Of a stretch of DNA of 64,000 bases, positions 12,676-32,494 are shown one piece after another. The stretch spans positions 407,861 to 471,860 of the forward strand of contig CAVZGO010000007.1 of NCBI GenBank assembly GCA_963774935.1, written 5' to 3'. This stretch comes from an uncultured Chloroflexia bacterium. Lineage in GTDB: Bacteria; Chloroflexota; Anaerolineae; Anaerolineales; UBA4823. Each line of letters begins with the position of its first letter. Position 1 is the first letter of the stretch. The notes beneath the pieces were generated by a model, which saw only the letters and a program-made list of their open reading frames with translations, made no database searches and was not told the DNA's origin. The translations under genes were made by a program, and so were the position numbers.

Positions 12676-12688
12676 CCTGAGTGTAACT

Positions 12689-13489
12689 ATGCCAGAACCT
12701 CAAATCCTGCTCACCAACGACGACGGCATCCAATCCCCCGGTCTTTGGGCTGCCGCAGCCGCCCTCTCGACCATCGGCTTTGTGCATGTCGTTGCCCCGC
12801 GCGACCAGTGGTCCGGCGCCGGGCGCAGCCTGCCCGGCACCACCGATGGCGTCATCCGCCCGGAGACCGTCCTGGTAAACGGTAAAAGCTGGCAGGTCTA
12901 TGCTGCCGGCGCCACCCCCGCCCAGGCTGTGCTCTATGCCGTGCTGGAGATTCTGCCCCAGCACCCCGACCTGGTCGTTTCTGGTATCAACTACGGCGAA
13001 AACGCCGGTTCCGGCGTCACCATCTCCGGCACCGTTGGCGCCGCCCTGGAAGCCGCCGCCGAAGGCATCCCTGCCCTGGCAGTCTCCCTGCAGACCGACA
13101 TCGAGCACCACCGCTCCTACTCCGACCAGGTCGATTTCTCGACCGCCGGCTACTTCACCGCCCTGTTTGCCCGCCGAATGCTCAAGGGCGCCATGCCCCC
13201 GGATGTCGATGTTTTGAAAATCGATCTCCCCTGGGATGCCACCCCCCAGACCCCCTGGCGGGTCACCCGCCTTTCGCGCCAGCGCTACTACCAGCCCACT
13301 GCGCCCGATCGCTCTGCCACCACCATCCCTGCCCCACTCGGCTACTACCTCTCCTACGACCCGGCGCTCGATCCGCCCGATTCCGATATCTACACCCTGC
13401 TGGTGCACCGCGAAGTCTCCGTCACCCCCCTCAGCCTGGACATCACCTCCCGCACCGACCTCGCCGCCCTGGCTTCCCTCTTAAAATAA
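12689..13489 (+). CDS. surE: 5'/3'-nucleotidase SurE
   Basis: MPEPQILLTNDDGIQSPGLWAAAAAL...VVAPRDQWSGAGRS is the SurE signature. The track ORF start at 12548 reads through the tRNA and is rejected. The ATG is at 12689. Confidence 0.9.
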   Translation: MPEPQILLTNDDGIQSPGLWAAAAALSTIGFVHVVAPRDQWSGAGRSLPGTTDGVIRPETVLVNGKSWQVYAAGATPAQAVLYAVLEILPQHPDLVVSGINYGENAGSGVTISGTVGAALEAAAEGIPALAVSLQTDIEHHRSYSDQVDFSTAGYFTALFARRMLKGAMPPDVDVLKIDLPWDATPQTPWRVTRLSRQRYYQPTAPDRSATTIPAPLGYYLSYDPALDPPDSDIYTLLVHREVSVTPLSLDITSRTDLAALASLLK

Positions 13490-13507
13490 TCACTGACAAT
13501 TTCTTCC

Positions 13508-14284
13508 CTATATGTGCTGAAATTCAGCAACCATTTCATCATAAATCCCGGCGCCCGCTGCCAGAATCGTAATCGGCGGCTGTAAAAAATCGGCCTCCCC
13601 CGCCAGGTTGGTCACGACAGCACCCGCTTCCCTGGCAATCAAGCCGCCCGCTGCCACATCGTACGCGTGCACGTGCTGCTCCCAGTAGCCGTCCAGCCGC
13701 CCACAAGCTACGTAGCACAGGTCGATGGCAGCCGAACCCAACCGGCGCACACCCTGGCAGCGCTGTGAAAAATGCGCGTACTCCTTCAGGTTGTTATCCG
13801 TCCGGCTGGCGATATCATACGGAAACCCTGTCACGAGCAAGCTCCGTCGCAGGTTGTCCACTCCCGAAGCCTGGATCGACCTGCCGTTGAGCGTTGCCCC
13901 CTGCCCCACCTGCGCGCAGAAGCACTCCTCCAACACCGGTGCGTACACCGCCCCCAGCCGTAGATGTCCATTCTCGGCATAAGCAATCGACACCGAGAAC
14001 AGGGGTACTCCATGAGCGAAGTTCACCGTCCCGTCCAGTGGATCGATATACCAGACGCTGCTATCCTCCCCATCCAGCCCCCCGGACTCCTCCGAAACCA
14101 CCCGCTGCCCGGGGAAGCGCCGCTGGATCTCGTCCAAGAGGAACGCCTCCGAGCGATGGTCGTATTCTGTCACCAGTTCAATCTCGTCTTTGTAGCGCAT
14201 CTGCATCTGCGCTCCCACCCCCTGGCGTAAAATTTCCCCAGCCCGCCGGGCCAGGGACTCCAGATCTGCCAATGTCGGGCTCAT
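13508..14284 (-). CDS. suhB: Inositol monophosphatase family protein (SuhB-like)
   Basis: The motifs VVSEESGG and WYIDPLDGTVNFAHGVPLFSVSIA are present. The ATG at 14284 is preceded by the SD caggaggg; the track start at 14356 is less likely. Confidence 0.85.
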   Translation of the reverse strand: MSPTLADLESLARRAGEILRQGVGAQMQMRYKDEIELVTEYDHRSEAFLLDEIQRRFPGQRVVSEESGGLDGEDSSVWYIDPLDGTVNFAHGVPLFSVSIAYAENGHLRLGAVYAPVLEECFCAQVGQGATLNGRSIQASGVDNLRRSLLVTGFPYDIASRTDNNLKEYAHFSQRCQGVRRLGSAAIDLCYVACGRLDGYWEQHVHAYDVAAGGLIAREAGAVVTNLAGEADFLQPPITILAAGAGIYDEMVAEFQHI

Positions 14285-14389
14285 TCGCCCTCCTGTCTTT
14301 TTCGCTTTTCTTCGGGTTGCCTGATGGGATTGCTCCGCATCGCCATCAGGGTACATGCTGCCTCGTGGGTTCTTAACCCAAGGGTTTCT

Positions 14390-15658
14390 TTACACCCTAT
14401 ATACGCGCCCCTTCTTGATCACCGACTGGACCAGATTCGCCCCAAAGCGGTAGCCCAGGTGGCGGTAATCTGCCTCCGTTAAAATCAGCAAATCCGCCTG
14501 CTTGCCCACCTCGATCGAGCCGATCTGCTCCGCCCGTCCGATCGCTGCCGCCGCGTTAATCGTCGCCGCCGCGATCGCCTGCGCCGGGGTCAGGCGCATA
14601 TAGCGGCATGCCAGTGCAATCGCAAACTGCATATTCTCGCACCACGCCGTGCCCGGGTTTAAATCGCTGGCGATCGCCAGCAGCCCGCCCGCCTCCAGAA
14701 TCGCCCGTGCCGGGGTGTACTCCCGCTCCGCCAACCCAAAAGGCGTGCACGGCAGCCCCACCGCCACCGTCTCCGACCCTGCCAGCGCCCGGATGTCCTC
14801 CGCCGAGGTCTTCACCAGGTGGTCCGCCGAAACCGCTCCCAGCTCCGCCGCCAGGCTGGCTCCCCCCAGGTTATCAAACTCATCCGCATGGATCTTCAGT
14901 GGAAAGCCCAGCTCTTTTGCCTTGCTCAGGATGCGCCGCGACTGCTCCAGCGTGAACGCCCCTGTCTCGCAGAACACATCCACAAACGGCAGCTCGTGGT
15001 ATGGCACCTGCGCCGCCCACCACTCCGCCAGCACCGGCAGCATCGTCTCGCAAATCTCCTGTGTGTACTCGTCCGGTCGCTCGCGGTACTCCGGGGCAAT
15101 GGCGTGCGCCCCCAGGAAAGTCGGTGCAATCTCCAGCGGTCCTTCCCGGTCCAGGGCGAGCAGCGCCTGCAGCATGCGCAGCTCAACCGCCGTGCGCAGC
15201 CCGTAGCCGCTCTTCACCTCCGCTGTGGTTGTGCCGTAGTTGAACATGCTCCACAGCCGCGGCCGCGTCTCTGCCATCAGCCGCTCCAGCGAGCTGGTGC
15301 GCACCGCCCGCACCGTCGATAAAATTCCCCCGCCCCCTGCCAGGATCTCCAGGTAAGTCTTGCCCTGCAGGCGCATCTCGAACTCTGCCGCCCGGTCGCC
15401 CGCCCAGATGGCGTGCGTGTGCGGATCGACAAAGCCCGGCATCAGCACCTTGCCGCCCGCGTCCAGCGCCGGCGCCTGTGGGTAAGCCGCCCGCAGCTCC
15501 GCCGTCGTCCCCACCGCCGCAATCTGCTCCCCTTCCAGCAGCACCGCCCCATCCTCGATAATCCCCAGGCGGCCCAAATCCGCGCCGCGCTGCGGCCCAC
15601 CAGCCAGTGTCAGCAGTTGAGAAGCAGAATGAATTAACATCACCTCAGATTCTACCAA
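14390..15658 (-). CDS. hutI: Imidazolonepropionase
   Basis: GFVDPHTHAIWAGDRAAEFEMRLQGKTYLEILAGGGGILSTVRAVR and ...KIHADEF... are HutI/amidohydrolase signatures. The start is either TTG at 15658 or ATG at 15640. Confidence 0.9.
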   Translation of the reverse strand: MVESEVMLIHSASQLLTLAGGPQRGADLGRLGIIEDGAVLLEGEQIAAVGTTAELRAAYPQAPALDAGGKVLMPGFVDPHTHAIWAGDRAAEFEMRLQGKTYLEILAGGGGILSTVRAVRTSSLERLMAETRPRLWSMFNYGTTTAEVKSGYGLRTAVELRMLQALLALDREGPLEIAPTFLGAHAIAPEYRERPDEYTQEICETMLPVLAEWWAAQVPYHELPFVDVFCETGAFTLEQSRRILSKAKELGFPLKIHADEFDNLGGASLAAELGAVSADHLVKTSAEDIRALAGSETVAVGLPCTPFGLAEREYTPARAILEAGGLLAIASDLNPGTAWCENMQFAIALACRYMRLTPAQAIAAATINAAAAIGRAEQIGSIEVGKQADLLILTEADYRHLGYRFGANLVQSVIKKGRVYRV

Positions 15659-15690
15659 AACTTATCGGATTTTGTTGCTGCGTCAACAGA

Positions 15691-17355
15691 TCATGGTTCC
15701 TGATACCCATTCCGAAGGAAACTTCCCCTCCCCGTTCCCCAGAGGATCCGCGCCTGGCTCGTGCCCGGCAGGTCGTAGACCACCGCGCCTGAATGCGCCG
15801 TCAGCAGCACCACCTCCAGGTCGGCGTCCAGGTCGATGTTCGCCAGCGTCGGCGCCGCCAGCGCCCCGTTCCAGTCTCCCGGGTATGCCGCTGGCAGCTC
15901 GACCTCCGCCAGCCGCCTGCCCAGGCTGTCCAGAATGTGCAGCTTGCCCGTCTTCTGGCTGCCCTTCTGCGTCCACGACGCGAAGATGACTTCCGCATCG
16001 CCATCGTTGTCCAGGTCTGCCACCACCGGCTCCGAGGCGAAGCGCAGGATGCCCTCCGCCGGGTCCGTCACCGCGTAAGGCCAGTCGCCTTTCTCCGTCT
16101 TATCCAGCCAGTAAGCGTGCAACCGCCCATCGTAAGACGGGAACAGGATTTCCAGCCTCCCGTCGCCGTCCAGGTCAGCCGGCACCGGGTTGGGCACCGC
16201 TGTCTCGATCAGGTTGTAATCCTCGCTCAAAGGCGCTGCCGCCCCATCCGGCGTGGGGAGGACCGTCCAATCGTAGCCCGACGCCGCCCAGCGGCTGCGG
16301 TCGGCGTTGAAGATAAATACCATCTGGTACAGGCTGGTGTACGGGTCTGTGCCGCAGTTGTACACATTCCCCACCACCACGATCTCCCGGGCGCCGTTCC
16401 CATCCAGGTCCACCAGGACCGGCGCTGAATCAGCAAAGTTCGGGCGGTGCTCGCTCCCGCAGTTGGCATAGCCGCGCAGGTCTACTGCGTGGTCCACGTG
16501 CACCCCCACCTGGCTCCAGACTTTTGGGCCAACTGGATTAAAGCCGTTGTACATCGCGTTTGCCGGGAGCTGGTTCCCACTCCGGTCCAGTGCCGTGATG
16601 TAGTGTGTGTCCGTCGGACCGATAATCTCCTTGAAGCCGTCCCCATCCAGGTCGCCCACCGCCGCGTTCTGGTTGTACATCCCCCAGCCGTAGCCCGGGT
16701 CGCCGTCCCGCCGCGCCGGCCAACCCGCCCGCACCGAGCCATCCGGCTCGTAAACGCTGAGCTGCTTCGTCGCCCCGCCGCTTGCCCTGCCCACGATGAT
16801 CTCCACCAGCCCGTCATCCTCCAGGTCCGCCAGCGCCAGGGTGCGGATCTCCCCCGCCCCAAACGGGCTGCGCTGCCAGTCGATCCCACCCGCACTGTTG
16901 TAAACCGTCAGCAGGTCCCCGCCGCGCCCGGCAACGATCTCCAGGTCGCCGTCGCCCTCCAGGTCTCCCACCCCGATCCCCGGCCAGACCCGGCTGCTGT
17001 TCTCCGCCCGCCATTCCAAAGCCCCCGTCTCCCCATCCAGCGCTGCCAGGTCATACGTCCCTGCCAGCACCTCCATCTGCGGGTCGCCGTCGATGTTAGC
17101 CACAGCCGGGGAAGAGTACCAGCCCGTCTCGCACCACGAGGCGTAGCACCCGCCGCGCTGCCATTTCAGCACCGGCGGTTGGAGACCGGTGAAGATCATC
17201 GGCAGGTAGATCGTCGAGCCGGAAGTGGGGGATAACGGTATGGCCTGGGCCGAGGGAAATATGGGACCTGGTAGAGCTGCAATTAGAATCGCCAGGAACA
17301 TTGATCGCAGTACAAACCGCAGAGCAGATTTTTTATGGAGGTAGGAAGCTACCAT
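15691..17355 (-). CDS. Secreted FG-GAP/VCBS-repeat protein (beta-propeller type)
   Basis: The protein has a signal peptide (MFLAILIAALPGPIFPSAQA). It carries repeated D-x-D-G-D Ca-binding/FG-GAP motifs: ANIDGDPQMEVL, GDLEGDGDLEIV, ADLEDDGLVEII, GDLDGDGFKEII, VDLDGNGAREIV, ADLDGDGRLEIL and ADLDNDGDAEVI. Confidence 0.78.
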   Translation of the reverse strand: MVASYLHKKSALRFVLRSMFLAILIAALPGPIFPSAQAIPLSPTSGSTIYLPMIFTGLQPPVLKWQRGGCYASWCETGWYSSPAVANIDGDPQMEVLAGTYDLAALDGETGALEWRAENSSRVWPGIGVGDLEGDGDLEIVAGRGGDLLTVYNSAGGIDWQRSPFGAGEIRTLALADLEDDGLVEIIVGRASGGATKQLSVYEPDGSVRAGWPARRDGDPGYGWGMYNQNAAVGDLDGDGFKEIIGPTDTHYITALDRSGNQLPANAMYNGFNPVGPKVWSQVGVHVDHAVDLRGYANCGSEHRPNFADSAPVLVDLDGNGAREIVVVGNVYNCGTDPYTSLYQMVFIFNADRSRWAASGYDWTVLPTPDGAAAPLSEDYNLIETAVPNPVPADLDGDGRLEILFPSYDGRLHAYWLDKTEKGDWPYAVTDPAEGILRFASEPVVADLDNDGDAEVIFASWTQKGSQKTGKLHILDSLGRRLAEVELPAAYPGDWNGALAAPTLANIDLDADLEVVLLTAHSGAVVYDLPGTSQARILWGTGRGSFLRNGYQEP

Positions 17356-17380
17356 TAAGAAATTCCTGATAAATTGTTGT

Positions 17381-18068
17381 TGTCAATCTAAAAACCGACC
17401 ACCTTTGGGCGACCGTTCGAAATGAAAGACGAGAACAGGCATCTCTGGTAAGGTCCGGTTCCTGTCTCGGTTTGGGGGTAAGGTAATTGTAATCCAAGAC
17501 GTTGGCCTCCATCAGGCTTTTTGCCCTTCCAACATGCCCTGGCGAAAGAGGAACTACTCGCCCACCAGCTCTAGAATATGAGCATGGTGTGTAAGGATTG
17601 AATTCCAGCGGCAAGTCGGCTTCCCTTCGTCTGCGTTTTCGCCGCTCTTGGCTGACAAAATTGTGCACCGAACCGGCACTCCCCGGGTAGCCTTCGCTGC
17701 CTTGAATTTCGTACATGCGATAGGCGGTATAGCGCTGCTTGAGATGTAGTTGATCGCTCTCGTCCAGCAATTCAAGTATTCGTTGTTTGTAAGGTCCAAG
17801 TACCAGCTCAGCTCGTGGCTGTTTGAGTGTGTACGGCTCTGGCGCCGGATTCTGTGATTGCTTTTCGGATCGTCTCTCGATCAAAGCCTAACTTCCGATG
17901 GATGGCTCTCCTCCGTGTTTGTCGGGGAAGAATGCCACAATTCTCAAAGATTAACCAGTTACGTTTCGCTTTTCAGATTCCGATGGATGTCAGCCACCGA
18001 TTCCGATCTACCACCAAAAAGTGGCCGACATCGTCCGGAATCGCTGGCCGGTTTCTTCCGGATTCACA
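17381..18068 (-). mobile_element. Internally deleted, frameshifted IS21-family element (istA N-terminus fused to istB C-terminal tail) with imperfect terminal inverted repeats
   Basis: The reverse strand carries an IstA HTH (RRAIHRKLGFDRETIRKAI) and then LGPYKQRILELL...GYPGSAGSVHNFVSQERR. This jumps to an IstB-type tail (LTHHAHILELVGE-). The ends are 17381 TGTCAATCTAAAAACCGACCAC and, on the reverse complement at 18068, TGTGAATCCGGAAGAAACCGGCCAG. Several ATCGGAAT/TCCGGA sub-terminal repeats are present. Confidence 0.55.
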
Positions 18069-18442
18069 TGCACCAAAATCAATTTCTTTGGATTTATATC
18101 TTTTTTTAATAACAATTGTTTTGTGAAGATAATATTTTCAGATGTGTTGGTAGATTTATTTTCTATCAATATAGACTCTTCAGGGACACCAGAGTGAATT
18201 GCTACTTTGGCAAATTTATCTGCTTCTGGCTCAGACAATTTATTACGGGTTATTCGACCAAACCCGACTAAGAAGGCTATAATCGGTGCCTATTTGTCAA
18301 TAAATAGCTCTGTTCCATACTGAGCGGTTCTTATATCACTGTTTCCTAACACTAGTATACAATCTGATAGCTGAAGAGGCTGGCTTAGTTTTAAGTAATT
18401 CCATAACTTCTTTGCTAAATTATCAACAAAGTGATTATTCAT
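18008..18442 (-). pseudogene. DUF218 (YdcF/SanA/ElyC-like) gene remnant with an in-frame TAG and a truncated, decayed 3' end
   Basis: The reverse strand from the ATG at 18442 reads MNNHFVDNLAKKLWNYLKLSQPLQLSDCILVLGNSDIRTAQYGTELFIDK*APIIAFLVGFGRITRNKLSEPEADKFAKVAIHSGVPEESILIENKSTNTSENIIFTKQLL... The SEAE...GVP...E..S.NT.EN motif is the DUF218 pattern. The stop is at 18290-18292, and AT-rich coding ends at the IS end near 18068. Confidence 0.65.
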
Positions 18443-21065: not shown

Positions 21066-22399
21066 TTATACCCGTTGAATTACAGCACCAACTCCATTAA
21101 GCCTCTCATCAAAGGATTCATAACCGCGTTCTATTTGCTCAATATTTAACACCTCTGTTATATCCGAAGCTACAAGTCCCGCAATTACTAGAGCTGCCCC
21201 AGCCCGCACATCACTCGCACTAACAACGGTACCATTTAGTTTTGTTGGCCCATAAATTTTAACGGCATGGAATAATCCGGCAGTACTTTCATAAGGAAAA
21301 TTGTATATTTTAGGATCTACATCAGGATTGAAATACTCTATTTTGGCTTCCATTTTTTTTAATTCATCCAAATGAGTAAATCTTTGTGAAAATATTGTCT
21401 CGTGAAAAACACTCACACCATGCATTTGTGTCATTAAAACCTCTAACATTGGTACCCAATCCGTCGAAAATCCCGGATATGGACGACTAGTAACAGATAA
21501 CCCCGTTAATTTAAAATCGGAGCATTGAACCTCTAGAATTTGTGATTCGCCCTCATGACCTAGTTCAAATCTGACTCCTTTCTGGCTTAATATTGCCAAG
21601 AGGGGAAGTAGATGTTCTTCATTGACACCTTTGAGTGTTATTGGACCATGACCCAATGCCCCAGCAATTACAAATGTGGCAGCATCGTTTCTGTCGGGCA
21701 TGATTGTAATGTCAACATTAACAGGACTATATTCACCGGATACCCCCTGCACCTCAACAATCCCATTTTCGCCTCGCTTCACATTTGCACCCGCTTGTTG
21801 CATAAACAATATAAAATTATCAATTTCAGGTTCTAAAGCGGAATTTTGAATTATGGTCGTACCCTTTGCACATATTGAAGCAAGTATTGCATTTACTGTC
21901 CCATTTACTGTGGTTTTGGTGAATGTAATGATGCCCCCAGTTAATCCTTTTGATGTTATTTCGTAATACTCATCCTTTTCTATAACGGTTGCCCCTAGTC
22001 GTCTAAAAGCATCTAAGTGCCATGTCACTTTTCTCCTACCGATCTGATCGCCGCCAGGATGCCAAATTCTAGCACTACCAAACCTGCTCAATAATGCCCC
22101 CGCAAAAAGAAAAGAACCGGTAGATTTTGCTGTGACTTCAGGGGGAATTTCTTGAGGTTCAATATTAGTGGTGTCGATTAATAAAGTGTGTTCATCTAGT
22201 GAATTAATCTTTGCGCCTAAAAATGAAAGTATTTCAACCAATGCAGCCGAATCGTTTATTTTTGGAACATTTCTAAGTAAATACTCACCAGGAAACACAA
22301 TAGTCGCTGGAATAATTTTTTGTGCGGCATTCTTAGCGCCTTGAATTTTGACCTCCCTTTTAGAATAGGGCTATGATGGATTACAAACTTTGTAGTCAT
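21066..22399 (-). CDS. MurA-type enolpyruvyl transferase (EPSP-synthase fold) with Asp at the catalytic-Cys position; N-terminus split by an apparent 1-nt deletion at the C-run 22355-22357
   Basis: ATG 22399 (SD aaggaagga) gives MTTKFVIHHSPILKG. Adding one G continues this as EVKIQGAKNAAQKIIPATIVFPGEYLLRNVPKINDS... Other motifs are PGGDQIGRRKVTWHLDAF (E. coli MurA has PGGCAIGARPVDLH), GFSTDW and DVRAGAALVIAGL. Confidence 0.8.
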
Positions 22400-22416: not shown

Positions 22417-22956
22417 TCAATTAAATAGCCCGAGTTGTCTCACCCATAAAAGCAAAGTGATGCTAGGTAAGTGCGAAATTTCACCCTTCTCAATCATATC
22501 AAAAGCAGTTGCAATATTAAATTTGCCGATTTGTATTTTTTCTGTTGGATCAGGCTTTGGGTTACCTATAGAAAAATCTTTAACGACATAAAACCATATT
22601 TTACTTAGTAGTGTGTCTGTTCCCCAATCTGCAGATCCAATCGATATCCATGAAGTACTTGTAAAGCCAGTTTCTTCTAATAATTCTCTCTTAGCCGCAT
22701 CGATTGGTAATTCATCTTGGTCTATTCCCCCTCCAATAACTTCCCATGTTTCTTTTGCAATTGCGTAACGATATTGTTTTACTAACATTATGTTTCCACT
22801 GTGAGTTATAGGCAATATCATTACGCCTGGTTTCATTTCTAATACTAAATGGGAGGTTGTGTTTCCGTTATGCTCACACAACTTATCCTCACGAAGAGTT
22901 AACCAGGGCGATTTATAAATATTAGAACTTGATAATATTTTTGTATTGCTCACCAT
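22417..22956 (-). CDS. Nudix hydrolase, ADP-ribose pyrophosphatase (NudF)-like
   Basis: The Nudix box is GGGIDQDELPIDAAKRELLEETGF, preceded by LVKQYRYAIAKETWEV, the NudF-type pattern. Confidence 0.8.
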   Translation of the reverse strand: MVSNTKILSSSNIYKSPWLTLREDKLCEHNGNTTSHLVLEMKPGVMILPITHSGNIMLVKQYRYAIAKETWEVIGGGIDQDELPIDAAKRELLEETGFTSTSWISIGSADWGTDTLLSKIWFYVVKDFSIGNPKPDPTEKIQIGKFNIATAFDMIEKGEISHLPSITLLLWVRQLGLFN

Positions 22957-22979: not shown

Positions 22980-23645
22980 CTAGATTGATTCGCCTAAAAC
23001 ACCCTTTACCACAACAAATGCCTCATAATACCTATTCTTTACATGATTGTCCGGATGTGCTTGGATAGCCCACCATTTTGCGCGGGTTGATACTACCTCC
23101 GGGTGCATGTATGATTTTCCTTTTTCAGAAAAATGTAGATTAATAGCCTGCCTCTTTATTTCAATAAAATTCGTGATATCTACAAAAATATTTGGGGCAA
23201 AATCCCCATTTTGGGTTGGTGGTTCTGAATATAGAATCCAAAATATATTGGAGTTGCGTCTTCCTGCATTTAAAACCGAAGAAGCAACAACAACATGATC
23301 TTGATGACCGTATCCCAATACTTGGGGATAATGTGTTATCAGAATAGAAGCAGAAGTCAGGGCAATATAATTTTCAACTATCGACACAATTTCATGGTTA
23401 TATAATAGCTCTCCATCAGGGAGATTCTCATTGTAAATTTGAAAGCCCCCAAGCTTAGCAGCTGCTTGGGACTCAATATGACGCTGACGAGATGATGTTG
23501 TTCTACTTTTTTCTCCATTTGTTAATTCTAGAACGGTTACTTTCCATCCAGCGTGACTAAGGCGTACAAGCGTACCAAAACATGTTAATTCATCATCATC
23601 GGGATGAGCAAAAACTGCTAACACATTAGGAGTATTATTTATCAT
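22980..23645 (-). CDS. PIG-L/LmbE-family N-acetylglucosaminyl deacetylase
   Basis: VLAVFAHPDDDELTCFGTL, the AHPDDE motif, is followed by ...HQDHVVV... (second metal-binding His/Asp motif). Confidence 0.8.
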   Translation of the reverse strand: MINNTPNVLAVFAHPDDDELTCFGTLVRLSHAGWKVTVLELTNGEKSRTTSSRQRHIESQAAAKLGGFQIYNENLPDGELLYNHEIVSIVENYIALTSASILITHYPQVLGYGHQDHVVVASSVLNAGRRNSNIFWILYSEPPTQNGDFAPNIFVDITNFIEIKRQAINLHFSEKGKSYMHPEVVSTRAKWWAIQAHPDNHVKNRYYEAFVVVKGVLGESI

Positions 23646-23651: not shown

Positions 23652-24635
23652 TCACCTATTGAATTTCACACCTGGTTTTATGCCATATTTTTTTGAAAAT
23701 GATACACTATCCATTTCTTCATCATCACCAAGTTGGAGTCGTTTTATTATTATAGATTTTGTAAGACAAGCAACCAATAACCCATTATCATTAATGTCAA
23801 TAATACTCCCTGGTTCATAATTTGTTACTTGCTCACCCATGGCGGCTTTCCAAATTATTACTTTTTCCCCGTTCCAAAATGTAAACGCACCAGGATATGG
23901 ATGGGTAAGTGCTCTTATCCAATTGTATTGATCTAAACTCTCCCGATACCAATCAATTACTCCATCTTCTGGCCTTCTTTTTTCCCAATATGTAACCTTT
24001 GTTGGATCTTGTGGAATACGAGGGGCAGTTCTATTTGCTAACAATGGTAGACTATCTTTGACTAACTGGTAATGGAGGATTGCTATTTTTTTATAAATAC
24101 TCGATGCATCATCATTGATCTCAATCATGTATTCATTCTGGGCTATCATGTCCCCTGCATCTGCCTCCTCTTCTAGATAAAACATAGTCACACCGCTTTT
24201 AGTAAAACCCTTGATAATTGTCCAGGGGATAGGTGCTCTACCCCTTCCTATCGGTAGTAAGGTGGGATGAATTCCTATGCAGCCATGAGTGTTATCATGG
24301 CGTTTAGAACTATTGTATTTGTTCTTTGGAATGTCTAGTAACTCACTAGGTGCCAATTCGGACCAGCCGATAATAAAGATAAAATCTGGTGATAGTTTCT
24401 TTATTTGATTGTATACGTCTATTGTCTTAATACTTGAAATCTTGAATAAGGGTGCTTTAGCTTGATTAGCTAAAGAATCGAAAGATGTGTATCCCGATGT
24501 TTTTTCGGCTTTTTCCTCTGATAAGCTAAAAACTGCAATTAATTTAGCCTCTTGACTCTTAAACACGTCTAAATCTATAAGTCCATTTAATGCGAATTGA
24601 CCTAACTCAACACCGCTTATGAATACAATATTCAT
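23652..24635 (-). CDS. Formyltransferase of the Fmt/ArnA type (N- and C-terminal formyltransferase domains)
   Basis: HGCIGIHPTLLPIGRGRAPIPWTIIKG aligns with the Fmt segment [20 protein letters not shown]. ...EEADAGDMI... holds the catalytic Asp region. The C-terminal part IDWYRESLDQYNWIRALTHPYPGAFTF is Fmt_C-like. Confidence 0.8.
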   Translation of the reverse strand: MNIVFISGVELGQFALNGLIDLDVFKSQEAKLIAVFSLSEEKAEKTSGYTSFDSLANQAKAPLFKISSIKTIDVYNQIKKLSPDFIFIIGWSELAPSELLDIPKNKYNSSKRHDNTHGCIGIHPTLLPIGRGRAPIPWTIIKGFTKSGVTMFYLEEEADAGDMIAQNEYMIEINDDASSIYKKIAILHYQLVKDSLPLLANRTAPRIPQDPTKVTYWEKRRPEDGVIDWYRESLDQYNWIRALTHPYPGAFTFWNGEKVIIWKAAMGEQVTNYEPGSIIDINDNGLLVACLTKSIIIKRLQLGDDEEMDSVSFSKKYGIKPGVKFNR

Positions 24636-25062: not shown

Positions 25063-25750
25063 TCAGGATACATTTGGACATAATCCGACACCGCAGCTAC
25101 GCACAAGTTTGTGACGACGGCGGCGGCCCCGGAAAAAGGGATGACGATGTTGGTACCAGTATTGGGTAGCTTCTCGAACAGCCTGACATACTTCTTCCCA
25201 GGTCTCAAAGCGTTTGCCTTTCAATGCCAGCGAACGCAGAATTTTCCACCACGGCTCGATCAGGTTGAGGTAAGCCGCATATTTGGGTTGAAAAACGAAC
25301 TGCCACCGGGGATGGTGCAAACTGAACAACAACACATCGGTCGCTCGGTGCGCCGGCAAGTTGTCCAAAATGGCATTGATCTGCAAATCGGCTGGCAGCT
25401 ATTGGTCTACTTTCTCCAGAAAATCCACAAAGTTCTTCGCCGAACGGCTCACATACGGTTCGGTAAAAACTTCTGCATCGCTTGGTTTGAGGGCTCCAAA
25501 GGTGTAACCTTTTCCACGTCGACCATAATCAATCTCTTGTTTGGCTCTTTTCTGTCAACCAGAAAATAAGAAAGGGTCTTCTGTCAAAGCCAGTTCGCCA
25601 ACGCTGGCTTTTCGTGCAACGGCTCGAAATCCACGTTGGTGAGATCAATATCATCACGCAGGTGCTGGAACAAATGCAAAAACCGGGGCATAGCGCACGG
25701 GGAAACCGGAGTAAGCCGCACAGCTTAACCGGAGCATGGCTCACACACAA
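25063..25750 (-). pseudogene. IS630-family (DDE_3, Tc1/mariner-like) transposase remnant with an in-frame stop and frameshifts
   Basis: The reverse strand reads ...DYGRRGKGYTFGALKPSDAEVFTEPYVSRSAKNFVDFLEKVDQ*LPADLQINAILDNLPAHRATDV...FQPKYAAYLNLIEPWWKILRS, the DDE_3 core. The upstream part is only recognisable in other frames (PFLIFWLTE). Confidence 0.7.
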
Positions 25751-26160: not shown

Positions 26161-27303
26161 TCAAACCTTCCCCTCAAACGCGCGTCTCAGCAGCCCTTGA
26201 AACAGCATCTCTGCCTGTCTTTCTGTCTCGCGTTGCTGGATGCGTAGACGATCGTAGCGACGCACGACGTGTGCAAAAAGATCTTGATTTGCTAGAGGGG
26301 GCATAATAGTTTTGATCTTCTTGATGTCTTGAACATTGACATGTGGCGATGCAGAGCCACCAACCATTCTCTCAGCTTGTTTATAAATACTATCCAATTC
26401 AAGGACAGCCCATAAAAATTCGGGGGTTGCCTTCTGAGGATCCGCTCTAAATAGCATTATTCGTTGACCAAGACATATTTTCTTATTAGAATTTTCGGGA
26501 ATTCGTGCAGCATTTCCAAATCGAGCACCTTCACGACAATAAATCACATCATCTCCCATCGGAGTTCCTCGCTCTATCCTCTTGGCATATTCTTCGTATT
26601 CAACATATTTTGTGGTTGACCAGTCAAGGTAACCATTTTGTATATCAGAGCTTCTTACACTTGCATACTCAGTCTCGATTAAAGTATGTATTGGTGTTTC
26701 GTGTGGGCAATCCAAGATTGTTTCACACAAATCATTAATATGCCCGATTTCCCATCTTTTTAAGTTCGTTTCCGGCTCCCCAAACATCTCCACAAACACC
26801 GACTGCAAAAACGACTCCCCCAGCTCGCGCGCCGTGCGCCGCAGTTGCCTCAGTCGGTCTGCTTTCGCCAGGATCATCGCGATGCGGCGCTGCTCGGAGT
26901 GAGATGGAAGAGGAACAATCATCCTTTCAAGAAAATTTCGATTTACATGTGGTATTGTCGCCCCAGTACAATTGTCTTGAATTTCCTCGAATTTGCTCCT
27001 CAAAAAGTAGCCTAAATATGGACCATAAATAGTATCTTTATTTGGTCGTAAAATAGCCAGCGTGCTACCTGCATATCCTGTCAACCCGAAACCAATTGTT
27101 CCAGCGTTAGCACCATCCCAAGCAATCAGAACATCATTTACATTTGCAACAACAGCTTTTTCTACTTGTGCATACTTAGGTTTCCCGCCTGGTCGTAAAT
27201 CTTCAATTTGCAAATAAGGATACATTTCGGTTTTCGGTTTGCTAAAAACTTCGTCTGCTTTATTGCCTTTGATAATCGTGACCATTTCGCCAAGTGCTGT
27301 CAT
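26161..27303 (-). CDS. hsdS: Type I restriction-modification specificity subunit HsdS (two target-recognition domains)
   Basis: The protein is 380 aa. The conserved central helix is EQRRIAMILAKADRLRQLRRTARELGESFLQSVFVEMFG and the C-terminal helix is DRLRIQQRETERQAEMLFQGLLRRAFEG. These flank two variable domains. The gene overlaps hsdM by 4 nt. Confidence 0.9.
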   Translation of the reverse strand: MTALGEMVTIIKGNKADEVFSKPKTEMYPYLQIEDLRPGGKPKYAQVEKAVVANVNDVLIAWDGANAGTIGFGLTGYAGSTLAILRPNKDTIYGPYLGYFLRSKFEEIQDNCTGATIPHVNRNFLERMIVPLPSHSEQRRIAMILAKADRLRQLRRTARELGESFLQSVFVEMFGEPETNLKRWEIGHINDLCETILDCPHETPIHTLIETEYASVRSSDIQNGYLDWSTTKYVEYEEYAKRIERGTPMGDDVIYCREGARFGNAARIPENSNKKICLGQRIMLFRADPQKATPEFLWAVLELDSIYKQAERMVGGSASPHVNVQDIKKIKTIMPPLANQDLFAHVVRRYDRLRIQQRETERQAEMLFQGLLRRAFEGKV

Positions 27304-29042
27304 TTAAGCAACTCACCTAACTCTTTGATCTCCTCCTTCATCACCTGCTCCAGCCGCACCAGCCGCTCCAGCGTTACCTCCGGTTTCTCATAGTACACCT
27401 CGTCCGCTTCCACCTGCCGGTAGCGGCTGGCGGACAGGTCGTATTTATTCGCCTTGACCTGCGCCTTGCTCACCCAGAACTGCCGGCTGAGCTGCGCTAT
27501 CTCTGCCTGCAGCGGCGCGATCCGCCCCTCCAGCGCCACCAGCCGCTCCTGCGCCTCCGCCAGCTCCCCTTGCCCAGAATGGGGAGCGGCAACCTGAGCG
27601 TAGCTCAGGTCGGTGAGGGACTTAGGCCTGATCGCCGCCTCAAACCTCAGCCGGTTGATCTCTGCCTGCAGTCCCAACCGCTGCGCCTTGAGCGGCGCCG
27701 CCTGCGCTTGAAGCTCCTCCAGGCGCACCTGCCGCGCCTGCTGGAAGGCGGGCTCGCCGCGCTTCTGCCAGCAGGTCAGCACGTCCGGGATGTCGTTCTC
27801 TGCTACCGGCACGCGCTTGTCGTCCAGCGAGTAGCCGTCGTGCGCCATGTCGTAGAACCAAATCTCGCCCGTCTTTGCCCCGCGCGTGAACAGCAGCACC
27901 GCCGTGGATACCCCTGCATAGGGCCGGAATACCCCCGAAGGCATCGAGATCACCCCGTCCAGCCGGTTTTCTTCGAGTATCTTCTTGCGCAGCGCCACGT
28001 GCGCCTTACTGGAGCCAAACAGCACCCCGTCCGGCACGATCACCGCGCAGCGCCCGCCCATATCCAGGGCGCGCAGGATCAGGTGCACGAACAGCAGCTC
28101 GGTCTTGGTCGTGTCCCCCGGCAGCGTCGGGCTGGCGTCGCCCTTGTCCACCGCCCCCTTGAAGGGCGGGTTCATCAGGATCACGTCGTACTCGCGCTCG
28201 TCGGTGAACGCCTTGGAAAGCGTGTCCATGTAAAAGAACTGCGGTGAGTCGATCCCGTGCAGCATCAGGTTCATCGAGCCAATCCGCAGCATCGTCATCC
28301 CCGAATCGTTGTCGAAGCCGCGCAGGAACCTCTCGGATTTCATGAACTCCCGCTCGCGCTCATTCAGCCGGTCGCCGATCAGGTGATGCGGTAAGCCCTC
28401 TTCGTCGTAAGCCAGGATTTCTACCGAAGTGCCTTTTTCCAGCACGTACTGGTAGGCGTTCACCAGAAAGCCCGCCGTTCCGCCTGCCAGGTCGCCGATC
28501 CGCTCGGTGGGCTTGGGCGCTGCCATCTGCACCATCATGCGGATGATATGCCGCGGCGTGCGGAACTGCCCGTTGCGCCCCGCCGTGTTCAGCTTGCTCA
28601 GCAGGTATTCGTACAGGTCGCCCTGCACGTCCTGGTTCTGCTGGCTGATCTCCATCTGGTCGATCAGCTTGCAGGCTTCGATCAGCAGGCTCGCCTTGCT
28701 GATCTTGCACTCGGCGTTTGCCATGTAGCGCTCGAAAGAGCTGCCCTGTTCGCCCAGCGTGCGGAACCACGGGAAGATCGTCTCCTTCAGATGGCGCAGC
28801 GCCTGGCCCGCTTCGTACTTCGTCCAGTTCTGCCAGCGCATCTCAGCCGGGATTCTGCCCGGGTACTCCGCTTCGCGCCGCCGCGCCTGGCGCTCCAGCG
28901 CATTTTCGCGGTCGTCCAGGCGCTTCAAGAACAGCAAATACGAAAACTGCTCGATCGCGTCCAGCGGGTTGGTCAGCCCGCCCGACCAGAACTTGTCCCA
29001 CAGCGCGTCCACTTGCGATTTGAGTTTCGGATCAGTCAGCAT
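27300..29042 (-). CDS. hsdM: Type I restriction-modification DNA methyltransferase subunit HsdM (N6-adenine), with a long C-terminal coiled-coil extension
   Basis: The HsdM_N part is LWDKFWSGGLTNPLDAIEQFSYLLFLKRLD. The AdoMet motif is DLAGGTAGFL and the catalytic motif is VILMNPPFKG. Confidence 0.93.
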   Translation of the reverse strand: MLTDPKLKSQVDALWDKFWSGGLTNPLDAIEQFSYLLFLKRLDDRENALERQARRREAEYPGRIPAEMRWQNWTKYEAGQALRHLKETIFPWFRTLGEQGSSFERYMANAECKISKASLLIEACKLIDQMEISQQNQDVQGDLYEYLLSKLNTAGRNGQFRTPRHIIRMMVQMAAPKPTERIGDLAGGTAGFLVNAYQYVLEKGTSVEILAYDEEGLPHHLIGDRLNEREREFMKSERFLRGFDNDSGMTMLRIGSMNLMLHGIDSPQFFYMDTLSKAFTDEREYDVILMNPPFKGAVDKGDASPTLPGDTTKTELLFVHLILRALDMGGRCAVIVPDGVLFGSSKAHVALRKKILEENRLDGVISMPSGVFRPYAGVSTAVLLFTRGAKTGEIWFYDMAHDGYSLDDKRVPVAENDIPDVLTCWQKRGEPAFQQARQVRLEELQAQAAPLKAQRLGLQAEINRLRFEAAIRPKSLTDLSYAQVAAPHSGQGELAEAQERLVALEGRIAPLQAEIAQLSRQFWVSKAQVKANKYDLSASRYRQVEADEVYYEKPEVTLERLVRLEQVMKEEIKELGELLK

Positions 29043-29045
29043 AGC

Positions 29046-29429
29046 TTATCGATTGGCTTTCTTTTCGATATATTGCACGCCCTCAAGACCTTTGAAGTGC
29101 GCGTCCTGGGTCCACAGCGTGGCCTTATAAGCCCTGGCGCTCGCCAGGATGATGCTGTCTGCCATTGCCAATTTTAATTCGGTCGATAGCAAGGCCGCCT
29201 CAATGGCAATTTGCCTGTCTAAATCGATGACGTTTCCCACCACCATGCTGCCGGCAGCGTTCAAGGCTCGTGCTTCGCCAAATTCCGTTAGCACTCGCTT
29301 GAATACTTCGTACAGGCAGATGGTCGGCGTCACCAGGCTGTCCGCCTCCTGAATTGGCGCAGCAAAGAAATCGGCATTGACCCCGTCCGTGAGATATTCC
29401 AACCACCCAGATGAGTCAACAACGTTCAT
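29046..29429 (-). CDS. vapC: PIN-domain ribonuclease toxin VapC
   Basis: MNVVDSSGWLEYL... starts with the first acidic PIN residue, and LAMADSIILASA / TQDAHF carry the later ones. The protein is 127 aa. It overlaps vapB by 4 nt, and its stop lies 3 nt before the hsdM ATG. Confidence 0.85.
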   Translation of the reverse strand: MNVVDSSGWLEYLTDGVNADFFAAPIQEADSLVTPTICLYEVFKRVLTEFGEARALNAAGSMVVGNVIDLDRQIAIEAALLSTELKLAMADSIILASARAYKATLWTQDAHFKGLEGVQYIEKKANR

Positions 29430-29641
29430 TCGCGTTCCTCATCTTCTTCTTCACGGATACCTTCGATGTTCAATCCCTTCAGCATCCCACGTGCCTCTTC
29501 GATAGGCGGCACGATTACCACCCGTAAAGTCCCCTGATAAGGGATAAAGGCCAGCTTTTGCCCGGGCTTTAAGTTGAATTTTTCCCGCACTTCGCGCGGT
29601 ATAACCACCTGGAACTTGGATGAAATAGTTACTGCTTCCAT
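29426..29641 (-). CDS. vapB: AbrB/SpoVT-family antitoxin VapB
   Basis: MEAVTISSKFQVVIPREVREKFNLKPGQKLAFIP is a swapped-hairpin AbrB/MazE DNA-binding fold. The acidic C-terminal tail is EGIREEEDEERE. Confidence 0.85.
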   Translation of the reverse strand: MEAVTISSKFQVVIPREVREKFNLKPGQKLAFIPYQGTLRVVIVPPIEEARGMLKGLNIEGIREEEDEERE

Positions 29642-29679
29642 CGCTTTACGTCTCCTTATCGAACAGATAATGTAAGACG

Positions 29680-29708
29680 ATTATATCACCTTGTTAATTA
29701 ATTGTCTT
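29680..29708 (-). promoter_or_regulatory. Candidate sigma70-type promoter for vapBC(-hsdMS), with the TTAATTAA palindrome in the spacer
   Basis: The reverse strand reads AAGACA-17 nt-TATAAT (-35 at 29708-29703, -10 at 29685-29680). It lies in the AT-rich 114-nt gap between hsdR and vapB, and the spacer contains ttaattaa. Confidence 0.4.
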
Positions 29709-29755
29709 TTGATTCGCTAATGCATAAAATTGTTTCCACCGCTTGGAAGGGTTTG

Positions 29756-32494
29756 TCAGACCTCTAACCCCTGGGTGAAATGGATCAATTCAGAAACCTC
29801 GTTGGGCGAAAACCAGCGCTCTACCACATCCACGCCGAATTTGTCGAACGGCGCCTCGTACAAATCGGCGGTCTCCAGGCGCCGCTTCTGCAGGAACACG
29901 CTCTGCACCGCCCGCAGAAAGCGGATCTGGTCGCCATTGTACGGGTGGGCTGCGATGAACTGCAGGAATTGGTGCTGCACCACCTCGCCGTAGCCCGGGA
30001 TGGCATCTACCGCCAGCACCAGGCGCAGGAAGTCCAGGAAGCTATCCGCCTGCACCCCGTACGCCCGGCGGATGTTCTGCGGCGTCAGCTCCAGCGCGCT
30101 CCCCGCCAGCTCTGAGCGCAGCACGCGCTCCAGGTCGAGCAGCGCCAAATCGTCCGGGGTCTCGCCCCGCCCGATTGCTTGCAGCGCCGGGTGGCTTTCC
30201 ACAATCGCCAGGATGCGCGCTTCCACCCGCAGGCGGTATTCTTTGACGTACACCTGCTCGCCGCTCTGCGTCAGCAGGATGTAGCCGCTCAGGTCGATCC
30301 GGTCGGGCAGGTCCAGCATCAGGAAGTTGTTCACTCGCCGCCGGTTTTTCATCTGCGGCGCCAGCCCGGCTGCGATCTGGCTGAGCTCGGCAGGCTTTGC
30401 CTGGGCCAGGTTGTTGGGCGTGCACTGCCGCACCAGCGGCGCCAGCGCAGGGTCCTCGGTGACGAATTCTGGCAGGCTGGCGGCGTCCTCCACAATCGAC
30501 TGCACCAGGGCGCTCGCCTCCCTGCCTGTGCGCTGCGCCAGCTTCAAGCGCTCGATCTTGTGCTGGAAGGTCTCCGCTGGCACGTCCACCTCCGCCGCCA
30601 GGCGCAGCAGCGGGCCGACCTTCAGGCGCAGAAAATCGATCTTAGACGGGATCAGGTAGCCCCAAAACGCCTCGCCGAAGGCTTCTTCGATCTCGGGCAG
30701 CACCCGCCGCACCGAGAACGATTCTTTGGGGATGCGGTTGACCTGCGCCAGCAGGTCACCGGTCACCTGCTGGCAGCCGGGGTCGTTTTGCTCGCCCAGG
30801 TAGGTCTCCAGCAGCTTCAGGCGCGTGTTGAACAGCGCCACCAGCACCGGCAGCTCCTGCCTCAGCGCCTCCTCGGGCGCCTTGTTGAAATCGTTCTCCC
30901 AGAAGTCGATCACCAGGAATTCCTGCTTGCTCCCGCCCGGCAGCCGCTCGGGGAACCGGCAGGCCGCGTTCGAGCGCGTGCCCCGCCCGATCATCTGCTC
31001 CAGCTTGATGCGTGACTGCACCGGTTTCATGAATACCAGGTTGACCACCTCCGGCACGTCGATGCCGGTGTCCAGCATATCCACCGAAATGGCGATGCGC
31101 GGCAGCTCTTCCTGTTTAAAGCGCTTTACCAGTTGGCCGCGGTACTCGGATTTATACGTGATCACCCGCGCCAGGTTGGGAAACTGCGGGTACATTTCGT
31201 CGAAGGTATCTTGCAGCCGCAGGGCATGCTCCTGGGTCATTGCAAAAACAATCGTCTTACCGGGTAGCTGCCCGGACTGGTCATAGAAGCACTGCCCCAT
31301 AATTTCTTCCCACTGCCGGCGCAGCGTGTCCTTGTTGCTGACGTCTTTCTCGAGCTGCGTGCCTTCGAAATCGATCTCGTCCGGGTCAAAGCCCTGCTCG
31401 ATCAATTGGTTGCGGTCTTCGTCGCTCAGGTCGATGCCGCGGATACCCTGGCGCTGGAAGTGGGTTTGCGCTGCGTACAGGGTGTAATCCACCAGGTAGC
31501 CTTCTTCGATCGCCTGCTTGTAAAGATACAGGAAGGTCGGCTTGCCATCCCCGCAGTCGAAGACCCGGAAGGTGTCCCGGTCGATGAACTGCGCTGGTGT
31601 GGCGGTCAGCCCGATCATCCGCCCGTCGAAGTACTGCAGCACTTCGTTGAACTTGTTGAAAATCGAGCGGTGCACTTCGTCGAAAATGATCAGGTCGAAA
31701 AAAGCCGGCGAGAACTGCTCGAAGCACTGGCTGAGGGTCTGCAGGGTCACTGCATACAGCCGCTTGGTCTTATCAATCGTGTGTGAGTAGATCCGGTCGC
31801 ACGGCTCGTTTGGCAGGAACTTCTCGAAGCCGTCCGTCTTGGCCTGCTCCACCAGCGCGTCGCGGTCTGCCACGAACAGGATCGTGCGCGCCTGGTTGGC
31901 ACGCAGAAAAACGTCGATAATCGACATGGTGGTGCGCGTCTTGCCCGTGCCGGTCGCCATCACAAGCAGCGCCTTGCGTTTTCCCGCATCGAACGCTTCG
32001 CACACCCGCCGCACCGCTTCATGCTGGTAGGGTCGGTCGGTGATGCGGTTGTCGATAGCAATGCTGCTGAGCGGTTTCTGCTGCTGGCGCAGGAACAGCA
32101 GCCGCTCCAGGTCATCCGGGGTGGCAAAGCCGTACACCATCCGCTTGGGCGCTGCGCCCGCATCCAGGAAATAAATATCTGTCCCGTTTGCCAGGTAAGC
32201 GAAGGGTTGGAAGCTCTGGTGCTTATGGATCTCGGCTACGTAGTGCTCCGCCTGCTGCTGCGCCAGGCGCGGGTCGTGGCTGGTGCGCTTGGCTTCCACC
32301 ACCGCGATCACCTCACCGTTAGCCCGGTACAGGCAGTAATCCGTCACCCCGTTCCACGGCTCCTGGTCGTAGCCATCCACCGGAATCTCGATCCCCACCT
32401 GGGCGTGATTCCTCAAGTTCCACCCCGCCCGTTCCAGCGCCGGATCGATCATCTCCTTGCGCGTCTCTGCTTCCGAAATTCTACGCATGCCCAT
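29756..32494 (-). CDS. hsdR: Type I restriction enzyme R subunit HsdR (SF2 helicase/translocase + nuclease)
   Basis: The N-terminal part is AETRKEMIDPALERAGW. The Walker A motif is MATGTGKT and the DEAD-box variant is IIFDEVHRS. Helicase C motifs are TGIDVPEVVNLVFM and QMIGRGTR. The protein is 912 aa. Confidence 0.93.
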   Translation of the reverse strand: MGMRRISEAETRKEMIDPALERAGWNLRNHAQVGIEIPVDGYDQEPWNGVTDYCLYRANGEVIAVVEAKRTSHDPRLAQQQAEHYVAEIHKHQSFQPFAYLANGTDIYFLDAGAAPKRMVYGFATPDDLERLLFLRQQQKPLSSIAIDNRITDRPYQHEAVRRVCEAFDAGKRKALLVMATGTGKTRTTMSIIDVFLRANQARTILFVADRDALVEQAKTDGFEKFLPNEPCDRIYSHTIDKTKRLYAVTLQTLSQCFEQFSPAFFDLIIFDEVHRSIFNKFNEVLQYFDGRMIGLTATPAQFIDRDTFRVFDCGDGKPTFLYLYKQAIEEGYLVDYTLYAAQTHFQRQGIRGIDLSDEDRNQLIEQGFDPDEIDFEGTQLEKDVSNKDTLRRQWEEIMGQCFYDQSGQLPGKTIVFAMTQEHALRLQDTFDEMYPQFPNLARVITYKSEYRGQLVKRFKQEELPRIAISVDMLDTGIDVPEVVNLVFMKPVQSRIKLEQMIGRGTRSNAACRFPERLPGGSKQEFLVIDFWENDFNKAPEEALRQELPVLVALFNTRLKLLETYLGEQNDPGCQQVTGDLLAQVNRIPKESFSVRRVLPEIEEAFGEAFWGYLIPSKIDFLRLKVGPLLRLAAEVDVPAETFQHKIERLKLAQRTGREASALVQSIVEDAASLPEFVTEDPALAPLVRQCTPNNLAQAKPAELSQIAAGLAPQMKNRRRVNNFLMLDLPDRIDLSGYILLTQSGEQVYVKEYRLRVEARILAIVESHPALQAIGRGETPDDLALLDLERVLRSELAGSALELTPQNIRRAYGVQADSFLDFLRLVLAVDAIPGYGEVVQHQFLQFIAAHPYNGDQIRFLRAVQSVFLQKRRLETADLYEAPFDKFGVDVVERWFSPNEVSELIHFTQGLEV

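Follow-up and report, generated by a model that had tools for sequence, protein, structure and literature searches.

MurA catalyses the first committed step of cell-wall synthesis and is the enzyme that fosfomycin targets, and the MurA-like enolpyruvyl transferases NikO and PolA act on uridine monophosphate (UMP) in the biosynthesis of nikkomycin and polyoxin. Here we report on a MurA-like gene and its operon in a 64 kb stretch of contig CAVZGO010000007.1 from an uncultured Chloroflexia bacterium, which is called the window below (coordinates are window positions, all checks of the MurA-like gene were made on the minus strand, and labels such as L001, L008 and L009 denote homologous loci in other assemblies or metagenome contigs). 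The operon consists of six consecutive genes in one orientation, separated by 6-28 nt and with a guanine-cytosine (GC) content of about 38%, in the order formyltransferase, PIG-L deacetylase, Nudix hydrolase, MurA-like protein, small membrane protein X and TPR-nucleosidase (genes 1 to 6; Table 1). We describe the family membership of the MurA-like protein, the residue signature of its clade, the operon and its recurrence, the swapping of effector domains and the association of the clade with STAND NTPases. Taken together, the sequence data modestly favour an accessory Asp-type enzyme of the MurA family, likely intact, within a conflict- or defence-like operon.

With the Asp115-type MurA of Mycobacterium and Chlamydia, the protein shares the PF00275 fold, an alignment over the full length, the catalytic residues and Asp in place of Cys; a ‘YNF’ insertion is common to the clade and to many ordinary MurA. 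In contrast to these enzymes, the clade carries the R91T, G164N and H394Q substitutions and scores below the cut-off of the equivalog model, the window gene is island-borne, the clade is sporadic across phyla, and the operon partners are non-peptidoglycan enzymes together with a sensor-effector. The likeness to NikO and PolA would be that a paralogue with the MurA fold serves a specialised pathway and acts on a nucleotide-linked substrate, but the similarity is much weaker and partner genes of the nikkomycin or polyoxin type are absent from the window locus. Additionally, NikO keeps its catalytic Cys (Cys130; PMC6801904), unlike the window protein with its Asp.

EAD7 and STAND/TPR/WD40 architectures are known from multicellular bacteria (Kaur, Burroughs, Iyer, Aravind, eLife 2020; PMC7159879). 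The present loci resemble such conflict systems in their TPR/WD40 sensors, EAD7 adaptors, swappable effectors and STAND NTPases beside clade members, as well as in their occurrence in filamentous Chloroflexota, and the TPR module is a repeat-sensor with a varying effector as in those systems. The difference is that the window operon has no NTPase, and what stays constant in it is a cassette of four sugar-nucleotide enzymes. PMC7159879 and its 2021 sequel make no mention of MurA/EPSP, formyltransferase or PIG-L, and a literature search for MurA-like, enolpyruvyl, PIG-L or formyltransferase parts of defence or conflict systems found nothing relevant. The PNP_UDP_1 nucleosidase domain at the C-terminus of gene 6 recalls the PNP-family nucleosidase effectors Cap17 of CBASS and DtcC of Detocs, but the window operon has neither cyclase nor two-component genes, and its PNP is fused to a MalT-like TPR module. 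Gene 1 has the Fmt N- and C-terminal domains of sugar N-formyltransferases such as ArnA, which formylates UDP-4-amino-4-deoxy-L-arabinose (UDP-Ara4N); it is, however, under every curated cut-off, and genes of the Arn pathway or of O-antigen synthesis do not lie nearby.

The MurA-like protein, its clade and its substrate

Residue equivalences were taken from HMMER alignments to solved MurA structures and are given in the numbering of the 444-aa protein that is restored by one G. The motif PGGDQIGRRKV is aligned with PGGC/DAIG(T/S)RP(I/V)D of solved MurA, which puts Asp118 at the position of Cys115 and bears out the original prediction that Asp replaces this Cys. The further equivalences are K23, N24, T94 (R91 of MurA), D118 (C115), R123 and N166 (G164), and in the C-terminal part D314, D397, R399, Q422 (H394) and R425; the codons of D118 and N166 lie at 22049-22047 and 21905-21903, respectively. 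The equivalents of Lys22, Asn23, Arg120, Asp305, Asp369, Arg371 and Arg397 are all kept, among them the landmarks GAKNAA (Lys22) and FSTDW (Asp305), which had been read correctly before. A third landmark had been mislabelled, as VRAGAAL is the Asp369-Leu370-Arg371 segment and not Arg397, the true equivalent of which is the conserved R of IERGY.

Against the PDB, MurA is matched with 1e-70 across residues 4-444, NikO (4fqd) with 1.4e-24 and AroA with 2e-11. The EPSP-synthase fold, the similarity over the full length and the catalytic and phosphoenolpyruvate (PEP) residues, with Asp at 115, are those of MurA, but the phosphate contacts to UDP-N-acetylglucosamine (UDP-GlcNAc) are not, with Thr94 standing for Arg91 and Thr-Val-Asn for Ser-Val-Gly. 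The protein does not belong with NikO and PolA, since it is nearer to MurA and its neighbours are Fmt, PIG-L, Nudix and TPR-PNP; judged by its sequence, it is clearly a member of the MurA family, and not of NikO or AroA. It passes the NF006873 model (396.7 bits, cut-off 297) and fails the murA equivalog model TIGR01072 (388.2 bits, cut-off 392.7).

Across 5,266 homologues, identity to the window protein changes in a sharp step: a small group has 42-65%, and ordinary MurA reach about 41% at most (35-41%). Thr at Arg91 and Asn at Gly164 (R91T, G164N) are the signature of this small group, present in 39/39 clade sequences, while ordinary MurA in the same alignment keep Arg91 (Lys in one). Asp115 occurs in nearly all clade members (Cys in two) and H394Q in those checked; the K22, R120 and D305 equivalents are invariant, and a single sequence lacks Arg397. 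With TIGR01072, the five members of the clade that were scored are all below 392.7 bits (388.2, 387.2, 383.3, 374.1 and 359.4), and all five pass the looser subfamily model. A 22-24-aa ‘YNF’ insertion was considered as a clade marker and rejected, as a 26-29-aa version is present in many ordinary MurA.

The 39 signature sequences were monophyletic in 50/50 neighbour-joining (NJ) bootstraps. When the clade-conserved motifs STG[TS]FLFAG and FHET[IV]F[SA]xRF were sought in 185,579 species-representative genomes, five loci were obtained, three of them in the clade, namely in a Proteobacteria, a Thermoanaerobaculia and a Solirubrobacteraceae metagenome-assembled genome (MAG). Since only 3 of the 185,579 genomes have it, the clade gene is sporadic and accessory, and is no large group's housekeeping enzyme. 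The suggestion of an accessory enzyme is thus upheld by the island of foreign GC content, by an operon unrelated to peptidoglycan synthesis and by a rare monophyletic clade separate from ordinary MurA in the phylogeny. That we are dealing with the natural Asp-type housekeeping MurA of the organism would agree with NF006873, which would name the protein UDP-GlcNAc 1-carboxyvinyltransferase, but it is very improbable in view of the foreign-GC island between transposase remnants, the unrelated enzymes in the operon, the score below the TIGR01072 cut-off and the absence of the clade's invariant motif from nearly all of the scanned genomes. Judged by its genomic context, the clade is a group of MurA paralogues hitherto undescribed and linked to sensor-effector genes; annotation pipelines name its proteins ordinary MurA, which is a pitfall for users of the databases.

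Regarding the substrate, Arg91 and Arg120 of MurA contact the phosphates of UDP-GlcNAc, Ser162-Val163-Gly164 is the diphosphate-binding region, and the Asp-type MurA of M. tuberculosis and Chlamydia, too, retain Arg91 (PMC8698320). An Asp at position 115 is a predictor of insensitivity to fosfomycin (PMC6801904, PMC8698320). It is uninformative on the substrate, because Asp-type MurA enzymes act on UDP-GlcNAc. A substrate other than UDP-GlcNAc is plausible for the clade, and the grounds for this, real but indirect, are R91T and G164N, not Asp115. The much closer match to MurA than to NikO (1e-70 versus 1e-24) speaks against such a substrate. Because one clade member is translationally coupled to a bona fide MurC, it can be argued that the chemistry would lie near the axis of UDP-GlcNAc and UDP-N-acetylmuramic acid (UDP-MurNAc).

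The same residues bear on the idea of an inhibitor-insensitive bypass MurA, a spare UDP-GlcNAc enolpyruvyl transferase that would work under blockade by fosfomycin-like compounds or by a phage lysis protein (A2 of phage Qbeta is one that targets MurA). The predicted fosfomycin insensitivity, the conserved catalytic residues, the relative coupled to MurC in L012 and the defence-island setting would all suit such an enzyme. We nevertheless regard it as quite unlikely, as Arg91, which even Asp-type MurA keep, is lost throughout the clade, and a bypass role would give no reason for the linkage to formyltransferase, PIG-L, Nudix and TPR-effector genes.

The operon, its recurrence and its possible roles

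In gene 6, a MalT-like TPR module (about 290 aa) at the N-terminus is joined by a short EAD7-like linker to a PNP_UDP_1 nucleosidase at the C-terminus; the EAD7-like stretch is visible by eye in the alignment only, and not by Pfam. The PNP domain matches the PADLOC ‘Effector PN-superfamily’ with 3.7e-22 (a generic model, PDC-M60C), and its nearest solved folds are distant methylthioadenosine/S-adenosylhomocysteine (MTA/SAH) nucleosidases. This sensor-effector gene, and with it the link to conflict systems, was missed by the original prediction.

The full cassette is also present in L009, an unrelated metagenome contig, with gene-by-gene identities of 43-65%; the TPR protein there ends in EAD7, not PNP, with a TPR module 52% identical to that of the window. 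In L011 (a Proteobacteria MAG) the cassette is rearranged, and the TPR module, 32% identical, is fused to a patatin phospholipase. The trio of MurA-like protein, X and TPR was found in L097/L098 and, in convergent orientation, in L099, and the pair of X and TPR-EAD7 in L100. A homologous TPR module is therefore joined to PNP in the window, to EAD7 in L009, L099 and L100, and to patatin in L011. Only nine close relatives of this module came out of a profile search across 1.84 billion representative proteins. More distantly, it is related to regulators of the XRE-HTH/TPR_MalT type, suggesting that it senses a ligand. As a separate observation, a DUF6119 gene and a phage-type integrase stand beside the rearranged cassette of L011 (5435-9189), consistent with a mobile defence island.

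Other clade members have no cassette and lie directly 3' of STAND NTPases, with some of the genes overlapping. The STAND-type neighbours are NACHT-WD40 in L004, BTAD-NB-ARC-WD40 in L006 and L010, a WD40 giant with NB-ARC-TPR in L016 and BTAD-TPR in L002; downstream of the MurA-like gene of L010 there is also a pentapeptide-TIR gene. In L012 (a Thermoanaerobaculia MAG, 9971-16099), the clade gene is divergent (N23T, R91A, G164H) and runs into the beginning of the gene for a bona fide MurC paralogue, which is followed by an AAA_16-TPR STAND protein; an IS66 transposase lies upstream. Altogether, 13 of about 16 distinct clade contexts have a STAND-type neighbour; in the ordinary murA control, 0/36 loci, each flanked by 6 kb or more, had one within 6 kb. 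The Ktedonobacteria-like loci L002, L004 and L006 also have a GAF-domain protein and a UbiE-type methyltransferase near the STAND NTPase and the MurA-like gene, and L010 is related to them.

The remaining genes of the operon were assigned by profile matches. The best named match of gene 1 is ArnA (1.1e-53), followed by fmt (2.3e-42), both under their cut-offs; it is likely a sugar N-formyltransferase, and ArnA as best match suggests formylation of a nucleoside diphosphate (NDP)-aminosugar. Gene 2 reaches 9e-20 with a BshB1-like model, under its cut-off, and is 58% identical to the L009 orthologue, while gene 3 has an intact Nudix box and matches the NudE model with 1.3e-15. Protein X has no match in Pfam, NCBIfam or PADLOC; it is 59% identical to the L009 orthologue, occurs also in L097, L099 and L100, and is always paired with the TPR gene. 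Its single-sequence AlphaFold model, with a predicted local distance difference test (pLDDT) score of 39.6, was unusable.

Deacetylation, N-formylation, enolpyruvyl transfer and pyrophosphate cleavage, when combined in four enzymes, point to nucleotide-sugar chemistry, and a conflict or immune role is suggested because a constant enzyme and sensor part is joined to a variable toxic output in a defence-island location. From this neighbourhood we infer the substrate, the reaction order, the sensing step and any anti-phage role as follows. The four enzymes would remodel a UDP-aminosugar-like metabolite, in that the deacetylase and the formyltransferase would exchange N-acetyl for N-formyl, the MurA-like enzyme would attach an enolpyruvyl group from PEP, and the Nudix enzyme would cleave the nucleotide. 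The TPR module could sense the altered small-molecule pool and gate the toxic output domain (nucleosidase in the window; patatin or an EAD7 adaptor in relatives), and the whole operon would serve in conflict or abortive infection. To hypothesize further, this could be a new type of conflict or anti-phage system, in which four enzymes make or destroy a UDP-aminosugar-derived molecule, a TPR sensor triggers an interchangeable killing domain, and STAND NTPases are the direct partners of this enzyme clade in Ktedonobacteria-like genomes; we offer this only tentatively, as a possibility that is on the whole doubtful. If true, the MurA fold would extend into immunity and conflict biology via a mobile clade devoid of two UDP-GlcNAc phosphate contacts, and a molecule derived from a sugar nucleotide would be a possible signal or antimetabolite.

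Several points weigh against this interpretation. The function is read wholly from the gene neighbourhood, and full cassettes are few (about three, together with three partial ones on short contigs). The models of PADLOC-DB v2.0.0 match neither the MurA-like protein, Fmt, PIG-L nor protein X; the only matches in the operon are the PNP domain and Nudix (weak, PDC-S07). The Ktedonobacteria-like genomes with STAND-adjacent cases are STAND-rich, and because these cases may be one syntenic lineage, the number of independent STAND associations is nearer to three. In addition, with the catalytic residues of ordinary MurA and a relative coupled to MurC, the substrate may simply be UDP-GlcNAc.

Deacetylase, re-acylating enzyme and Nudix form a pattern known from tunicamycin biosynthesis, which we count in favour of a different role for the operon, i.e., a specialised-metabolite cassette that would produce a nucleoside or aminosugar antibiotic or antimetabolite without any immune sensing, the MurA-like enzyme acting in the manner of NikO or PolA. 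MurA-like enzymes can serve nucleoside-antibiotic pathways, as NikO shows (PMC6801904), and nucleotide-phosphate contacts are altered by R91T and G164N (PMC8698320). We consider such a cassette unlikely, as the operon contains no transporter, radical-SAM, glycosyltransferase or regulator genes, and its final gene is a TPR sensor with interchangeable PNP, patatin or EAD7, which is typical of conflict systems; moreover, a restriction-modification (R-M) system adjoins the island, and the MurA-like protein is far nearer to MurA than to NikO.

The interrupted reading frame

The stop codon of the Nudix gene, TGA, is at 22419-22417, and the ATG at 22399 follows 17 nt downstream, behind AAGGAAGGA, so the sequence agrees with the start that the original prediction proposed. 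The frame of this ATG gives MTTKFVIHHSPILKG and is afterwards out of frame and nonsense. The MurA frame is -1 relative to it, begins after a TAG and has its earliest start codon at GTG 22298; the tracked open reading frame (ORF) does begin inside the fold, as claimed, and the GAKNAA segment with the Lys22 equivalent is missing from its 410 aa. Exactly this 410-aa product is deposited as a protein in NCBI and ENA, and the public entry without Lys22, stemming from a probable homopolymer error, is a second annotation pitfall. With one additional G in the GGG run (CCC 22355-57 on the plus strand), the product has 444 aa (...PILKGEVKIQGAKNAA...) and matches intact homologues along its whole length, at 99-100% coverage, and since the same G is present in the L001 assembly, the proposed repair holds.

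Two sister assemblies were compared, L001 (ENA ERZ25039462 contig_5389) and L008 (ERZ25039527 contig_96012), the former covering the same locus in an independent metagenome assembly, with an island identity of 99.6%. At the break site, the window has AAAAGGG (A4G3), L001 has AAAAGGGG (A4G4) and L008 has A3G4, and a majority rule for each homopolymer across the three assemblies leads to A4G4, i.e., the predicted repair. Gly15, encoded only by G4, is invariant in 34 clade sequences. Both L001 and L008 are noisy, with many ORF-breaking homopolymer indels, and from their Flye-style contig names we infer long-read data behind them; the window is cleaner, yet it also has errors. A rimO/miaB-like housekeeping gene changes frame at CAGAACT near 3380, probably through a homopolymer error of assembly, and a lipB-type gene is likewise split (Table 1). 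Because these two housekeeping genes in the same 64 kb are also frame-broken, the break in the MurA-like gene is most likely an artefact, and we regard a homopolymer error of long-read assembly as its probable cause.

A genuine frameshift, which would make the gene a dead copy in a decaying island, is possible, although we think it the less probable origin; the family-level interpretation may then hold for the intact relatives. It draws on several observations that tell against an intact gene. Among the three assemblies, it is the window, much the cleanest, that carries the break, the total length of the A+G run is equal in L008 and the window, and the ORF-breaking allele is that of L001 at about 27 of 45 indel sites (16 kb compared). 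The adjoining DUF218 gene is a genuine pseudogene with an in-frame TAG, at which L001 is identical to the window, transposase remnants lie on both sides of the island, and clade genes are interrupted in other metagenomes too (L020, L021, L022 and L055). On the other side, L001 has A4G4 and L008 has G4, no further lesion was found across the 1.3 kb of the MurA-like gene, the catalytic residues are all intact, and the rimO/miaB-like and lipB genes are broken as expected of assembly error. Whichever origin the break has, an intact allele of the MurA-like gene is present in the population. The interrupted clade genes elsewhere (L020 9617-10942, L021 1307-2658, L022 10001-11382, and L055) comprise one in-frame stop and three frameshifts.

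The full-length enzyme could also be made from the unedited sequence, by programmed -1 ribosomal frameshifting or by transcriptional slippage, as A_AAA_G could allow a P-site tRNA-Lys to slip and the frames overlap. This has next to no probability and was rejected: the heptamer X_XXY_YYZ is absent at the break, slippage would need longer runs than 4 A and 3 G, the product of a -1 shift would have Arg at the invariant Gly15, and the intact single-ORF homologues (L009, L011, L016, L097 and others) contain no slip site.

The island and its flanks

The coordinates of all features are given in Table 1. Going by the relatives of its hutI gene, the host belongs to Anaerolineales (Chloroflexota). From about 17.9 to 25.2 kb, the GC content is 37-38%, compared with 52-64% in the surroundings, and the best explanation is that the operon was acquired on a low-GC island within a defence locus. 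The DUF218/YdcF-like gene at the island edge is a genuine pseudogene, because its TAG is the same in L001 and its C-terminus breaks off where the GC content changes. A tRNA integration site was considered and rejected, as the sole tRNA (Arg, 12554-12630) is away from both island edges.

Table 1. Features of the window discussed in the text, with strand and supporting matches (aa, amino acids).
Feature	Coordinates	Strand	Matches and remarks
MurA-like enolpyruvyl transferase gene (gene 4)	21066..22399	-	PF00275 2.6e-60; 444 aa with one G restored
410-aa ORF from GTG	21066..22298	-	Without the first 34 residues, including the Lys22/Asn23 equivalents
Frame-break site	22355..22357	-	Coding-strand GGG (A4G3); A4G4 restores ...ILKGEVKIQGAKNAA... 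and encodes Gly15
Gene 1, ArnA/Fmt-like formyltransferase	23652..24635	-	PF00551, PF02911; L009 orthologue 61% identical
Gene 2, PIG-L/LmbE-family N-deacetylase	22980..23645	-	PF02585 8.4e-21; AHPDDD motif
Gene 3, Nudix hydrolase, NDP-sugar/ADP-ribose pyrophosphatase type (NudE/YffH-like)	22417..22956	-	PF00293 8.8e-12
Gene 5, protein X, 177 aa	20504..21037	-	One N-terminal transmembrane helix and a helical domain
Gene 6, TPR-nucleosidase, 680 aa	18455..20497	-	PF13424, weak PF17874, PF01048
DUF218/YdcF-like pseudogene, island edge	18008..18442	-	In-frame TAG, truncated C-terminus; no window/L001 difference across the TAG
IS21-like transposase remnant, left edge	17333..17884	-	NF033546 2e-06 (weak); GC shift there
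DDE_3 (IS630-type) transposase remnant, right edge	25063..25386	-	PF13358 7.5e-09
Type I R-M system hsdS, hsdM, hsdR with inserted PIN gene	26161..32494	-	Adjoins the island
PIN-domain gene between hsdM and hsdR	29046-29641	-	PIN 1.4e-11; 71-aa ORF upstream
rimO/miaB-like methylthiotransferase, split in two overlapping frames	2364-3744	+	UPF0004 and radical SAM 2364-3407; TRAM 3169-3744
lipB-type octanoyltransferase, split in overlapping ORFs	52703-53101, 53056-53532	+	LplA-B_cat positions 5-100 and 90-199

The R-M genes have PADLOC scores of 1.3e-60 (Specificity_I), 4.7e-158 (MTase_I) and 7.2e-114 (REase_I), and the inserted PIN gene with the 71-aa ORF upstream is likely a toxin-antitoxin pair. 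Within hsdS, at 26738-27296, the window and L001 differ by a dense cluster of indels and substitutions, which looks like variation of the target-recognition domain and not noise alone.

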